From Escherichia coli (GTDB taxonomy: Bacteria; Pseudomonadota; Gammaproteobacteria; Enterobacterales; Enterobacteriaceae), in assembly GCF_022846255.1 (NCBI RefSeq), contig NZ_AP025682.1: a stretch of 64,000 bases of DNA; one strand, given 5' to 3'. Each line of letters opens with the position of its first letter. The stretch's first letter is position 1. This document shows, one piece after another, positions 6,001-12,000 of this stretch. Position numbers: made by a program.

Positions 6001-9000
6001 TAAAAACGGCTTATAAATATATTAAGAGCATTATAAATATTGCCCCAAGCGAGACAGATCCAGGTTTCCAAGTAAAGTTCTATTATAAAAATGCCAATGG
6101 CTATGAATTAGTTGCAGATGAGAAAACTGAAATTTTTTCTGATAGTGATGCTCATATTACAGCAACACTTGAAAATGGAAATGCTGTAGTGAGAGTTAGC
6201 AGTGAAACCCTTGGCATAAAAAATGAAAGCATAGATGTATGGTATGATGAAAAAAATAACATACGAAAATTCTCACATATAAACTCTCCAGTAAAGCTTG
6301 ATGCATACTATTTCTCATTAGCAACAGTTAACTCCAGAAAACAAGCGGCATATTTACGTGAAAATGGCGGAATAAAAATCTATCGAAATGGATTCAAGGT
6401 TTCTCCTTATGGAGAGCAGTATGATGACTGGACGGCTCTTGATGACTCGGTTCGAAGGAGAAAGATATTACCCCCTCATGGTAATCAAAACTTCTTTGGA
6501 CACGTCAAAGTTGAAGACCTAAATGGAATAGACTTTGAAGAAACGTCCTCAAGGGAAGGTCTGATTCATACCGATGCCTTTCAAGAACTTCGCCTCTTTG
6601 TATATAAAGCACTGACGGCTGCGGTAATAAGAATTAGTGAAGCCAGAAATATAAAAATAAATCCAAATGACCGTAGCTATGTTAAAGAAACTAAACCAAC
6701 AATATCAGTCAAAGATAAATTAAATATTGTATCTGAAACGATAAGCTCGGTTAGTAAATTGGTAGATGCAGCAACATCTGTTGATGACGTTTCAAGTGAT
6801 GGTGTCATTAATAACATTGAAGATAAAAGTATAAGAAACAAAATTATTGAAGATCTCCATGAAGCCGCAGATGAGCTAAAACAAGCGAGTGTGATATCTC
6901 AATCTTTAATCGATGAAATTGAGCTTCTTAGAGTGCTTGGCGCTATGGGCCTTGCTATTGGTGAGTTTACACACGAAATAAATTTATCAATAACAAGTTT
7001 GAGTATTAACGTTCAAAACCTTAAACAGTCTAAATTATTAGAGGAAGATAGAGACTCTGCTCTAAATAGCCTTGAAAATAATATTGCAACATTAAAATCA
7101 TTTACTAAATTTTTTGACAGTACTATACGTGAGAATGTAAACAGAAATAAGAAAGTTATTGAGATAAGAGACTCTATTGAGCCATTTTATGAATCGATGA
7201 AACCAATAATAGAACGCAAAGGAATTCAGTTTGCAATACATTATGAAGGTTATGAACTTTTTACGAAGCCGATTCATGTTTCAGAGCTATATTCTGTATT
7301 TATAAATCTCTTTACGAATGCATATAAAGCAATACTTCGTTCTGGAACAAATCCACGAAAAATGTCTTTAACTGCGAAAAAAGATAGTGAAGATATAATT
7401 ATCCGATTCGAAGATAGCGGTGATGGAATTGAACCTGCAAATAGAGAAAGAGTTTTTGAGCCTTTCTATACAACAAGTACACCATCAGGACCTTTTGAAA
7501 GTGATGATTTATCATTAAAAGGAATGGGATTGGGGTTATCAATCGTACGTGATCTCGTTGAATCCATGTCTGCAGAAATATCTATAGTTGATGCATCCGA
7601 TGGTTTTACAACGTGCTTTGAGTTGAGAATTCCAAAAGCTGATGATAAGGAAATACCAGATGACATCTATTAACCTACTTTATATCGATGATGATCAGCC
7701 TCAGCAAGTAAAGGGTTTAATTGAAGCAATAATCAGTAAAGCGAGTTTTGATTTAAATATAACTCATAAACCGCCGACGAAAATGAGTGAAATAGCCATA
7801 GAGTTGAGACAAGGTTATGATGGTATCATCATAGATCAAAAACTTGACAGCTTTGTTGAGGGAGTAGAACCAGTTGATTACTTTGGTGCCGCGTTAGCAC
7901 AAAATTTGCGAACACTCATGGCGGGTAAGTCAGATAATATATCTTATAAGCCAATAATTTTACTCTCTCTCGAAAGCTTATTAATTGAATATTATAATCC
8001 CGATTCAAGCTCGCATGATCTATTTGATTTAGTTTTGAGTAAAAGCATATTAGAACAACCAGAATTGTTAGAAAAAAAAGTTCACTTAATAAAATCTATT
8101 GTGAATGCTTACAAACGTGCACATTCGGAAGACTCGTTATATCAATTGCTTTCTCTGAGCAGTAATTATTCATTGCTTGATAAAAGATTTGAAATATATA
8201 TTTCTCAGTATGATAAAGATATACATAAGCTCGTCACATCCATACACTCCACACTTCTGAGAAGTAGTGGCATGTTAGTTTCTGAGATAACTTTGGCAAC
8301 CAGACTGGGTATTAATATTGAAGAATCGCCAGACTGGCACCAAGTAATTGGGCACCTTGAGGAATATAAATACAATGGCATATTCTCTGATTATTATAAA
8401 AGATGGTGGTGGGCAGATGTAGAGTTGTGGATAAATAAAAAGCTTAACTGCCCAATAATTAAAGGATTAACCTCAGAAAAAAGAGTGGAGATCATCAAAG
8501 AAAAACTTGGCTTAGAACGATTGATGCCAATTCATAGCGTACATCCAGGCCAAAGCACCAAGTTTTGGGTTAATTGTATCATCAGTAAAGAACCTCTTGA
8601 TACAATAGATGCTCTTCGTGCATCATCTATGGAATTAAAACCTTGGGAAGATGATAAATACCTTTCAATTAAAACAGTGTTAGAGAGACGGGCCGAAAAA
8701 TATAAAGTACATCCAGAAGATAGAACAAAATTGGATCGAATTCGGGCGAGGTTTAAATTATAATGAACAATAATACAACTTTGTTAGACGATATGTGTAG
8801 GCTCAGGGACTTTTTATATGATAGCCGCATATGCCCAGATATTAATCCTCTCAACCGTTTAATCAGTAAACTTAATGCAAATCTCCACTCCGAAACAGGG
8901 GAGGACTTTGAATACTCTTTAGACGATTTAGTATTTTATCTTAGCGAAAAATCTGGAACAATTTGTCCGACCCAAATTACACCCAAAGAAAACCCTATTG

Positions 9001-12000
9001 AAATACATTTGGAACTTATATTAAAAAGTGAAGGCCCTTATGAATTTTCGAAGATTAAAGAACTTTCAGGGCAATTACGACTTAAAGCTGAGTGGATCAA
9101 TGACACAACAGAAAAAATTGAGATAAAAACATCACATAGTGCTTGGCATTTTGATTATCATGTTCCTCAAATGGGGGATGGCGTAAATTCATTTACTCAT
9201 CCTCAATTCCATTTACAAAATGGAGGAAACAGGCTGACTGATAATTTAAATGACTATGGAGAGTTAATGATTCTTGATGCTCCAAGACTACCTTTACCTC
9301 CTATGGATGTGATATTAGCCATTGACTTTATTATTTCAAATTTCTTTGGTTCTATTTGGCAACAAGCATTATGTGATTCAGAATACATTGATGTAGTTAA
9401 AAGAGCACAAAAAGCATGGTGGAAACCTTATTATGAAGGTATAAGTCAACACTGGTCTGGCAATGGCTCAGGAATATCCAATATCCTAATTCCAAACCTT
9501 CTGTAGTGTATCAAAATCTGTTAACCATCTCCAATTACGAATAGCAATATTTATATAAAACTAATTTTTTATTTTAAACAACTTCAGCAAGGGCTAACTC
9601 TCAGCATCTCCTTCGGTGATACTTTGAGTTGCTCCTTGTTTTTTCGCCCTTTGGTTGAAAAAATTAAAAGCAAAACCAACCCTATACATTGACTTTTTCA
9701 GCATCTATCATATAAATAAAATAAGCATAATGGACATGCTTATTTTACTTTACTATATGAAAGGAGTTCATATGAATGATAGGAATCATACTTTTAATAA
9801 GTTCGAGCCATTCAGAAGTTGTAGCTATGAAAATTTTACTTCTGCTAAAACACTCTCCCAGCAGACACGTTCTCATTGTATTAGTATCAGATTAAATGAT
9901 GCCGAGTTATCTTACGTTGATGGCTTACGAGAAGATCTCAACCGTGCTGTTTGGATACGTATGTCAGCATTGAATCGTCTCCCTTCCAAAATTCCTGAAA
10001 TAAATCTAATTGTCTGGAAAGACCTTGCCAAAGCATCTCAGAATCTGAATAACCTCGTTCAGCATCTCAACACTAAATCACACGATAGTCCTTTTACTAT
10101 CACCGAAATTTATACGGTACAAAAAAGAATAAAAGCACTAAGAGATGCCCTTCTGTCAGCAAATCGATCTGTCAGTGATAAATAATGAAAGGGATGCAAA
10201 AAATCCGCAGAGGAAAGAGTTTTGCTGGTGTCGTCCTCTATGCGTTAAAGCCCGGTTCTCATCATAAAAAAGACCCTATCGTGATCGGTGGAAATATAAC
10301 GATAGTTGGCAATGCCGCTAAAGATCTGATCGCTGAATTTGATAGCACCAAACAGCTTCGCCCTGACGTGCAAAAGGCTGTTTGGCACAACTCGCTTCGC
10401 TTACCTAAAGGTGAATCACTAACGGCTAAACAGTGGTCTGAAATAGCAGATGATTACATGTCCCGCATGGGCTTCTCTGAAACGCATCTCAGATGCTACG
10501 TCCTACATGACGACGAAGATGGCCAGCACATCCATATCATCGCCAGCAGAGTGTCTCTTGATGCCGGAAAGCTCTACCTCGGCAGGAATGAGAACCTGGC
10601 AAGCACGAGAATAATTCAGCAACTTGAAAGAAATTACAATCTGACAAGAACCAAAGGGCCAGGAGCTAAAGCATCTACATCTTCTCTTTCCTCTAAACCG
10701 AAACATAAAAAATCACGTAATGAGGCTATGTTAGAGGAGAGAACTGGTGAACCATGCCCTAAATCCATCATCCAAAGGGCTATAGATTCGATAACATTAA
10801 ATCCTATAGCAATTGATGACTTCGTTGAAAAGCTGAATAGCATAGGGATTACGGCGAAAAGCAATATTTCTTCAACTGGCAAGATGAATGGATTTTCCTT
10901 TGAATGCAAAGGTGTTGTGTTCAAAGCTTCCCAGCTTGGCAAGAAGTATAGTTGGAAGAACCTGGAATCAATGATTTCAATGAATTACAACTCACACATT
11001 GGTGATGAAAAACCTGTCATCCCTGAACCTGCTGCCCATCGCAGCAACGAAGCTGTCATACCTATAGTGGAAGACTATTCTGATGAAAAGATTTACCCTG
11101 AGATAAGGGTACCCTTACCAAGACCTGACACAGCGCCCACAAAACCTACAAGCATGACAATGCGTTGGATCGCAACCATACCTTATCTTGTGAGTGTTAT
11201 TAGCGCACTTAAAACGATGCGTATCCCCTTTCTAAAGGCGTTCAATGGCCCAAGGAAGTTCTTTTCCGTGTCCATGATTCACCTGTCCTCTGTAAGCCTG
11301 AAACAGACCAAAACGAATAATTTCAAACCAAAAAGTTCCCACCAAAAGGCCCACAAGCCCCTTCTCCCCTGATTTCTCCACAGATAAACGATCGTTATAA
11401 TCGATCGATTTATTTATATTGATAGTCAATAACAATCAATAGGTAAATAATCGATCGGTACAAGCAATTTGCTATGTCCTTAGAAGTGTTCAAAATGTAC
11501 TTTCATGCATAAATCGGATAATAGGTTGATTTTACTAGCCTATTTTTCTATCCACGTATCGAACATGCAGGGACTGAAGTATGAGATATCTCATGATGAA
11601 GCGTGTAATGTTAGCAATCCTTCTTCCGTTTATTGTTGGATGTTTATTTGGTGCTAAAGCATTATCAGAGTATTGGGTTGTGTGGTTTTTTGTTTGTGCA
11701 ATGTTGATGATCACAGCCTGGGGCGTGTGGTTAAAAAATAAAAACAGAGGTTCCAGCTTCAGCTACCTGAATGATAATGAAGATGGTGTATTTATCTACA
11801 AATTTCATAATCAAGAGATGCGTTTAGATAAAGCCAAAAAAGAGCTTTATTTAAAAGATGGGTTAAACGAAAAAACCTACACTTTTTCCGATGTTGAAAG
11901 CTGGGAATATAAAATTAGCACAGGTGGTCAGATCCTCACTTCAGGTCTTAACCCTACAACTAACTTGATTAACAATAAGATTCTTGGTGAAAACATTAAT

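Follow-up and report, generated by a model that had tools for sequence, protein, structure and literature searches.

Which gene product would carry out the last step of a defence-like operon whose proteins show no recognisable nuclease fold? This question is raised by a four-gene cassette in a 64,000-nucleotide stretch of Escherichia coli DNA (RefSeq assembly GCF_022846255.1, contig NZ_AP025682.1), here called the window, which encodes a DNA methyltransferase (A), a histidine-kinase-like ATPase (B), a receiver-like protein (C) and a 247-residue protein (D). An earlier note on this DNA had proposed C and D as a candidate effector pair, one of them holding a nuclease, NADase or other growth-arrest activity controlled by phosphorylation. 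We found that B, C and D form a triad of fixed order that stands beside one of three types of modification genes, and that the only enzyme-like set of conserved residues in the pair lies in D. With slightly less than even confidence, we propose that B-C-D is the constant, restriction-like part of an anti-phage system linked to DNA modification, that C and D are its output end and that D is the executor.

A four-gene cassette encoding a methyltransferase, a kinase, a receiver and a small partner

Genes A (3686-5371), B (5364-7673), C (7660-8763) and D (8763-9506) are co-directional open reading frames (ORFs) on the plus strand, each overlapping or abutting the next, and the A/B, B/C and C/D overlaps fit a single operon with coupled translation. 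The earlier note had drawn the last two frames, of 367 and 247 amino acids (aa), correctly in both coordinates and content. The N-termini of homologues back the start of C at 7660, as does the RefSeq annotation of E. coli TUM11353, whose 99.9% identical cassette is the only such copy among 5426 complete E. coli genomes. No copy was found on plasmids in PLSDB, and the closest protein match came from Salmonella Muenchen. A promoter and terminator scan gave no more than chance-level hits in this AT-rich sequence.

Gene A encodes a 561-aa Eco57I-like N6-adenine (N6A) DNA methyltransferase, as indicated by its match to the PADLOC model MTase_II (2.3e-89), by the motifs FGGCGF and NPPY read off its sequence, and by the N6_Mtase, Eco57I and M_Eco57I_C domains of its homologues. 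Gene B encodes a 769-aa protein in which a soluble paraMORC-type GHKL ATPase is fused to a histidine-kinase transmitter, in the order MORC-like GHKL ATPase, conserved middle domain, DHp helix and kinase ATP-binding domain. Pfam places HATPase_c_3 at aa 63-187 (3e-22) and HATPase_c at aa 641-759 (1e-17); the HEF_HK match between them is weak (aa 528-585, E 0.0069) and yet covers model positions 2-59 of 67. The N-terminal region resembles the N-terminus of BbrUII/HgiDII restriction enzymes (NCBIfam, 2e-27), while PADLOC v2 returned only generic weak GHKL matches. His537 (codon 6972-6974) is the residue predicted to be phosphorylated. In 64 sequences, conservation reaches 90% or more in the GHKL motifs, in the F-x-H537-E H-box and in the N, G1, F and G2 boxes, indicating that both ATP sites and the phospho-acceptor histidine are under selection. 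As judged by alignment, B is clearly homologous to the kinase of the Vibrio system 'Kinase-methylase' (BLASTP, 27% identity over 374 aa, E 5e-35).

The B homologue of a Leptospiraceae metagenome-assembled genome (MAG; L070:95-4921) carries an N-terminal extension of about 800 aa with similarity to nothing that we can name. Longer B proteins (L070, L020 and L036) and a long D (L034) were considered as fusions that might reveal function, and were set aside as uninformative extensions or artefacts of ORF calling.

The B-C-D triad is constant while its modification partner changes

A scan of one genome per species with D motifs gave 80 loci, 70 of which have at least 3.6 kb upstream of D, and the triad was counted on these 70 by tblastn and ORF maps made with a crude ORF caller. 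B was present in all 70, and the B-C-D order was conserved throughout these informative loci. C was called as an ORF between B and D in 62 of them, and among the loci listed tblastn detected it in both of those that lacked the ORF (L011 and L020). The identical triad was recovered in six of six loci seeded with C instead. The module is widespread: the D-seeded loci come from Bacteroidota, Pseudomonadota, Geobacter MAGs, Anaerolineae (Chloroflexota), Verrucomicrobiota, Campylobacter/Sulfurimonas and Nitrospirae.

Three types of modification partner accompany the triad. The window type, an Eco57I-like methyltransferase of about 560 aa upstream, was seen in 18 of the 70 loci; another 20 have a MmeI/PglX-like N6A methyltransferase of about 630 aa directly downstream of D. 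The third type (27/70) is Ssp-like, following the gene nomenclature of PMC12839542, and has a BrxC/SspC-like P-loop protein of about 1075 aa and an SspD-like protein of about 367 aa resembling 3'-phosphoadenosine-5'-phosphosulfate (PAPS) reductase upstream, often together with DUF4007 (SspB-like protein). In the remaining five loci no modification partner was detected; one of these runs into a contig end, and at least one reflects an artefact of the ORF caller.

In 10-13 of the Ssp-type loci, D is followed by a convergent trio (L045:8480-13623; others include L063, L067, L077 and L096), consisting of a dnd_assoc_4-like protein (~159 aa), an SMC/Rad50-like ATPase (~731 aa) and a helicase with a phospholipase D (PLD) domain. 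This PLD-helicase matches TIGR04095, 'DNA phosphorothioation system restriction enzyme' (5.6e-125), and two distinct candidate restriction modules may thus share one phosphorothioation module.

C is a receiver with a conserved, non-enzyme-like output region

The receiver-like character that had been ascribed to C was confirmed. Its first 130 residues (7660-8049) adopt the (beta/alpha)5 receiver (REC) fold, and the pocket has the expected residue set: two Asp after beta1, an Asp after beta3, a Ser/Thr after beta4 and a Lys after beta5. Across 70 sequences D11 and D59 are invariant, and D10, S103 and K128 are at least 90% conserved; Asp59 (codon 7834-7836) is the predicted phospho-acceptor. The domain is divergent: the Pfam Response_reg model left the window protein unmatched and reached 2 of 70 homologues at E ≤ 0.1, and Response_reg_2 (PF19192) matched no member at E ≤ 0.001 and one of 70 at E = 0.1. 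That C is a receiver competent to accept a phosphoryl group is a well-supported prediction; the gene next to it encodes a kinase in which the H, N, G1, F and G2 boxes are conserved.

The C-terminal output region (aa 131-367, 8050-8763) has no Pfam or PDB match in any of the 70 members. A hidden Markov model (HMM) built from the 70 C sequences returned nothing under E 0.1 against all PDB sequences, and a word-indexed homologue search with the C profile brought in no new annotated relatives. The region is conserved, with 16 positions at 90% or more, and its conserved residues include Y151, G204, L206, L212, R215, L216, G217, S223, W226, Y238, G240, R248, W249, W250, R275, W303, C306, D314, W329 and Y334. 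This set is rich in aromatic residues and Arg and contains no conserved His, Lys or Glu; Cys306 and Asp314 are the only conserved polar residues of C outside the receiver. From the helix and strand pattern, the region may comprise a helix-turn-helix (HTH)-like segment (aa ~188-250), a helical part and a small beta module, and by its residues it looks like a binding or adaptor domain. The name 'protein-PII uridylyltransferase', which NCBI and UniRef give to the Rahnella bruchi homologue of C (P0006), finds no support in the sequence or fold evidence of this analysis.

D has an enzyme-like conserved core related to DUF2290

A word-indexed search for relatives of D reached only six clusters, and a full HMM scan of 1.84 billion representatives gave 780 family representatives at 50% identity, 489 of them at E ≤ 1e-10. 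Nearly all members have 230-280 aa. The structural model of D, built on an alignment of 129 sequences, reached a predicted local distance difference test (pLDDT) score of 92 and a predicted template-modelling (pTM) score of 0.90; in it, an N-terminal helical hairpin is followed by an antiparallel sheet of four strands, a short fifth strand and, at the C-terminus, a helical bundle. No structural neighbours were found in PDB or AFDB beyond D's own family, into which a protein of Acinetobacter suaedae falls, and the HMM of the 129 sequences returned nothing under E 0.1 against all PDB sequences. When C and D were compared with Pfam, NCBIfam, PADLOC and PHROGs, singly and with every alignment member, nothing significant was obtained, and no PADLOC v2 model exists for either protein.

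The conserved core of D reads W128-H129-x-D131 ... H146-P147-x-x-H150-x-x-x-G154-G155 (nucleotides 9144-9227), followed by P174-R175 and P179-P180-x-D182. H146, H150 and R175 are invariant in the 129 sequences, and H129, D131 and D182 are nearly so. The N-terminal half (residues 1-120, 8763-9122) is the least conserved part of the module, with a mean pairwise identity of 20-24% across 53 loci; the slowest-evolving part is the GHKL domain of B, with 55-61% in the same loci. The fast-changing surface of D could be a contact for a phage factor. Two odd D genes were noticed: the homologue at L070:6066-7004 has an insertion of about 60 residues just before HPxYH, and in a second Rahnella assembly (L003:1772-2541) D is split into ORFs of 122 and 143 aa, so that either the gene is a frameshifted pseudogene or the assembly is in error.

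Two AFDB matches of D are named 'DUF2290 domain-containing protein'. The window D was matched neither by the Pfam model DUF2290 (PF10053), which found one of 129 family members at 6.8e-3, nor by the PADLOC model, which found one of 20 at 0.015. The named AFDB matches and these isolated hits count as weak, independent hints of a relation. For a more sensitive comparison we assembled eight canonical DUF2290 sequences, some taken from the supplementary data of Rousset et al. 2022 and the others encoded at six plasmid loci, where each follows an 'ATP-binding domain' protein. The alignment of the eight reads R-F-D-F-D ... H-P-x-S-H-L-x-x-G ... F-I-x-F-I-L-R, and D has the parallel pattern W-H-L-D-x-H ... 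H-P-x-Y-H-F-x-x-G-G ... L-A-I-D-F-V-L-x-N-F. With this alignment, hhalign gave a probability of 90.2% and E 1.5e-6 over 48 columns, covering the core only; the shared part is the motif HPx[SY]H[LF]xxG with the helix that follows and the upstream strand [RW][FH][DL]D. The match was convincing only with all eight sequences and much weaker with one or two. On the basis of this profile-profile match and the motif parallel in the core, D is best described as a divergent member of the DUF2290 superfamily, related in its conserved core only. C, the gene upstream of D, proved unrelated to the DUF2290-associated helicases by hhalign.

Genomic context suggests a defence role

In E. coli TUM11353 the cassette lies in a tRNA-Leu island adjoining a type I restriction-modification (R-M) system and AbiE, which stand to its left, and the right-hand part of the island is the same as in the window. 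In Rahnella bruchi the four genes sit between a Phage_GPA replication gene and a portal gene of a P2-like prophage, a slot that we take to be the P2 variable hotspot of Rousset et al. 2022. Mobile elements of Enterobacterales carry the module. In the window, positions 3000-21100 form a low-GC block (31-38% against about 48% upstream) with the cassette at its left end, and the block terminates at tRNA-Leu(CAA) (21030-21114).

Upstream of the operon and on the opposite strand lies an ORF of 289 aa (1949-2818, minus strand). Window positions 1-2965 match E. coli records at 98% identity, and the features under this match include 'BrxR family helix-turn-helix transcriptional regulator' or 'WYL domain-containing protein'; by the name carried over from these records, the ORF appears to encode a BrxR/WYL-family HTH regulator. 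Genes for regulators of this type often lie at the edges of defence islands. The prophage slot, the R-M and AbiE neighbours, the BrxR-type regulator, the low GC content and the carriage on mobile elements together support, and do not prove, the view that the B-C-D operon is a defence system.

In other E. coli genomes the flank on the BrxR side continues into an integrase and a transposase rather than into this cassette. The low-GC block as a whole (~3000-21114) resembles an integrative mobilisable element at tRNA-Leu(CAA), with a relaxase-like gene at 10185-11372 and three ORFs of tyrosine-recombinase size at 15385-16710, 16700-17905 and 19593-20840.

Proposed mechanism and alternative explanations

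In the mechanism that we propose, B would be a soluble dimeric GHKL (paraMORC) ATPase that engages DNA lacking the mark of the partner enzyme, here the N6A methylation made by A. This engagement would switch on the kinase core, so that His537 is autophosphorylated and the phosphate passes to Asp59 of C; these are conserved residues for which we infer the chemistry. The C-terminal region of C would serve as a non-catalytic DNA- or partner-binding domain, and phosphorylation would alter the oligomeric state of C or its grip on D. D, translationally coupled to C, would be the enzyme that carries out the final step, most likely a metal-dependent hydrolase with nucleic acid as its substrate; phospho-C would release or activate it, and it would then act on the invader or on the cell. 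Such a module would be independent of the chemistry of the mark. The same B-C-D accompanies either of the two N6A methyltransferase types or, at other loci, Ssp-type genes for phosphorothioation. We advance only tentatively the more specific proposal that B-C-D is a mark-agnostic restriction module, in which the clamp detects DNA unmodified by N6-methyladenine (m6A) or phosphorothioate and the phosphorelay licenses a DUF2290-type enzyme of novel fold.

The earlier idea of an effector pair is kept in part. C and D do look like the phosphorylation-regulated output of a defence-like operon, with D related to DUF2290 and both always inherited together with the kinase. Searches for remote homology and for similar structures revealed neither a nuclease or NADase nor any other toxic fold in the two proteins; nor did they confidently assign both regions to housekeeping or DNA-binding-only folds. 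If the pair holds an enzyme, the conserved residues suggest that it is D, not C. Three points favour D over the C-terminal domain of C as the executor: D alone carries conserved residues of an enzyme-like kind, its translation is coupled to that of C, and its place is comparable to that of the small nuclease genes (GIY-YIG, HNH_2 or Vsr) that adjoin the kinase-regulator pair in the sister 'Kinase-methylase'/Response_reg_2 systems.

Several observations weigh against the proposed mechanism. No domain of B, C or D clearly tracks the modification type, with within/between identity ratios of 1.12-1.28 once the poorly conserved linker is excepted; the proposed mechanism therefore does not account for the discrimination of the mark, and the lack of a clear mark-tracking domain weakly favours a module without direct reading of the mark. 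The model of D matches no known hydrolase fold, and the role of its His/Asp cluster could be to hold a ligand or structural metal without catalysis. The helicase partner of canonical DUF2290 is listed with a NERD nuclease-type domain in the Bacillus and E. coli hotspot examples (Rousset et al. 2022), so DUF2290 need not be the nuclease there and may be a sensor or regulator instead. An experimental study of the B-C-D module was not found in the searched literature.

These observations leave room for three other explanations, all of which we consider less probable than D as executor. The strongest of them, though unlikely, is that the genes form a regulatory two-component system in which B senses a cue inside the cell, such as nucleotides or DNA state, phospho-C is a DNA-binding transcription factor that tunes the linked modification or R-M genes, and D is an accessory such as a phosphatase, connector or sink. 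In phosphorelays the third component is often a phosphatase or a sink, such as DtcB of Detocs, and the invariant histidines of D could serve phosphoryl chemistry. The output region of C has an HTH-like pattern of helices and strands without a catalytic residue set, and a regulatory role was proposed for the sister family by Bellieny-Rabelo et al. (PMC8011034). However, a pure regulator would be unexpected in prophage defence hotspots, as would strict three-gene synteny while the regulated enzyme swaps between unrelated chemistries; the core of D recurs in a protein of a kinase-free defence system of two genes that has been validated, and the window cassette offers C no separate restriction gene to regulate.

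It is less likely still that D is a sensor or specificity subunit, whose fast-evolving N-terminal half would detect some phage product or feature of DNA, and that the action comes from the MORC-like clamp of B, by entrapment or compaction, or from DNA-bound phospho-C, without any hydrolytic toxin. The low conservation of the N-terminal half of D compared with the GHKL domain of B would suit a sensor, the NERD domain of the canonical partners leaves a sensing or regulatory role for DUF2290, and no nuclease fold was detected in A-D. Against it, conservation in D peaks in a His/Asp/Arg cluster of the kind typical of active or metal sites and common to DUF2290, and an input component lying downstream of the receiver and translationally coupled to it would be unusual. 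Least probable of all is an effector in the C-terminal domain of C, for example a novel nuclease or DNA-blocking domain driven by phosphorylation-dependent dimerisation, with D as its inhibitor or immunity partner. The domain is conserved, and the regulator-like protein of the sister family also has a long unassigned C-terminal region, with no D-like gene reported there; yet the residues expected of an enzyme are missing from it, its conserved polar positions being C306 and D314 only, and the enzyme-like set sits in D.

If the module with D as executor works as proposed, phosphorelay signalling would join the repertoire of modification-based immunity, and a first functional handle would be gained on the output domain of C and on the DUF2290 superfamily, one member of which is already validated in defence. 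It could also account for the many methyltransferase or Ssp phosphorothioation loci without a recognisable nuclease. The mark-agnostic version, if true, would be the first R-M-like immune system to discriminate self from non-self through two-component signalling. With it, DUF2290 proteins would acquire a function, and it could supply the missing restriction partner of orphan Ssp phosphorothioation systems, such as that discussed for Acinetobacter baumannii global clone 2 (PMC12421847).

Comparison with known systems

As a classical type II R-M system the cassette lacks its hallmark, as no endonuclease with a recognisable nuclease fold was found in A-D. DISARM, BREX types 1-6 and Dnd/Ssp (DndFGH/SspE/SspFGH) resemble it in combining a constant, non-modifying module with alternative modification enzymes; their signature proteins PglZ, BrxL, DrmA-C, DndFGH and SspE are, however, not part of B-C-D, and signalling by a histidine kinase and a receiver is not a feature of those systems. 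Detocs is reportedly an anti-phage His-Asp phosphorelay of three genes with a receiver-containing output protein, as in B-C-D, but is said to lack a DNA-modification gene and to differ in its sensor, in a buffer protein that is a receiver only, and in its effector, an ATP nucleosidase. No sequence relationship of B, C or D to this defensive two-component system (Rousset et al. 2023 preprint, 10.1101/2023.01.24.525353) was found: a PADLOC scan returned no Dtc model (DtcA, DtcB or DtcC).

'Helicase+DUF2290' (Rousset et al. 2022; also 'Rst_HelicaseDUF2290'), which protects E. coli against T7 (PMC9122126), shares with our module a small protein encoded directly downstream of an ATP-using partner, apparently coupled to it, and a location in defence hotspots of mobile elements. 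The partners differ, being a kinase/regulator pair and a modification enzyme for D and a superfamily 1 (SF1; UvrD/NERD-type) helicase for canonical DUF2290. Histidine-kinase genes beside Acinetobacter Ssp loci have been reported, with speculation about regulation or a missing nuclease (PMC12421847, PMC7464106), and the DefensePredictor paper (PMC13092281) refers to a predicted HATPase/REC system. We found no description of the B-C-D triad, of its three-way pairing with modification genes or of the link to DUF2290 in the searched literature.

The nearest relatives are the HEF_HK (PF19191)/Response_reg_2 (PF19192) family and 'Kinase-methylase'. Bellieny-Rabelo et al. 2021 (PMC8011034) described by computation a pair of kinase-like (HATPase_c_3 + HEF_HK + HATPase_c) and regulator-like (Response_reg_2) genes, linked in 91.6% of cases and enriched beside R-M genes, for the most part those of C5 methylases that have Vsr or HNH genes close by; they reported that the pair descends from paraMORC ATPases. 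'Kinase-methylase' is a predicted system of a prophage hotspot in Vibrio parahaemolyticus S130, composed of GIY-YIG, kinase, TadZ_N-like and C5 methylase genes (Rousset et al. 2022, Table S6). Like these, the window module has a soluble HATPase_c_3 + DHp + HATPase_c kinase followed directly by an atypical receiver with a long unassigned C-terminus, beside a DNA methyltransferase. The HEF_HK match of B is only weak (E 0.0069). C has no detectable relation to PF19192 or to the Vibrio regulator-like protein, for which hhalign gave a probability of 0.1%, and a D-like gene was singled out in neither publication. Whereas the published pairs mostly stand with C5 methylases and Vsr, HNH or GIY-YIG genes, modules of the window type stand with N6A methylases or Ssp-like genes and always carry the DUF2290-like D.

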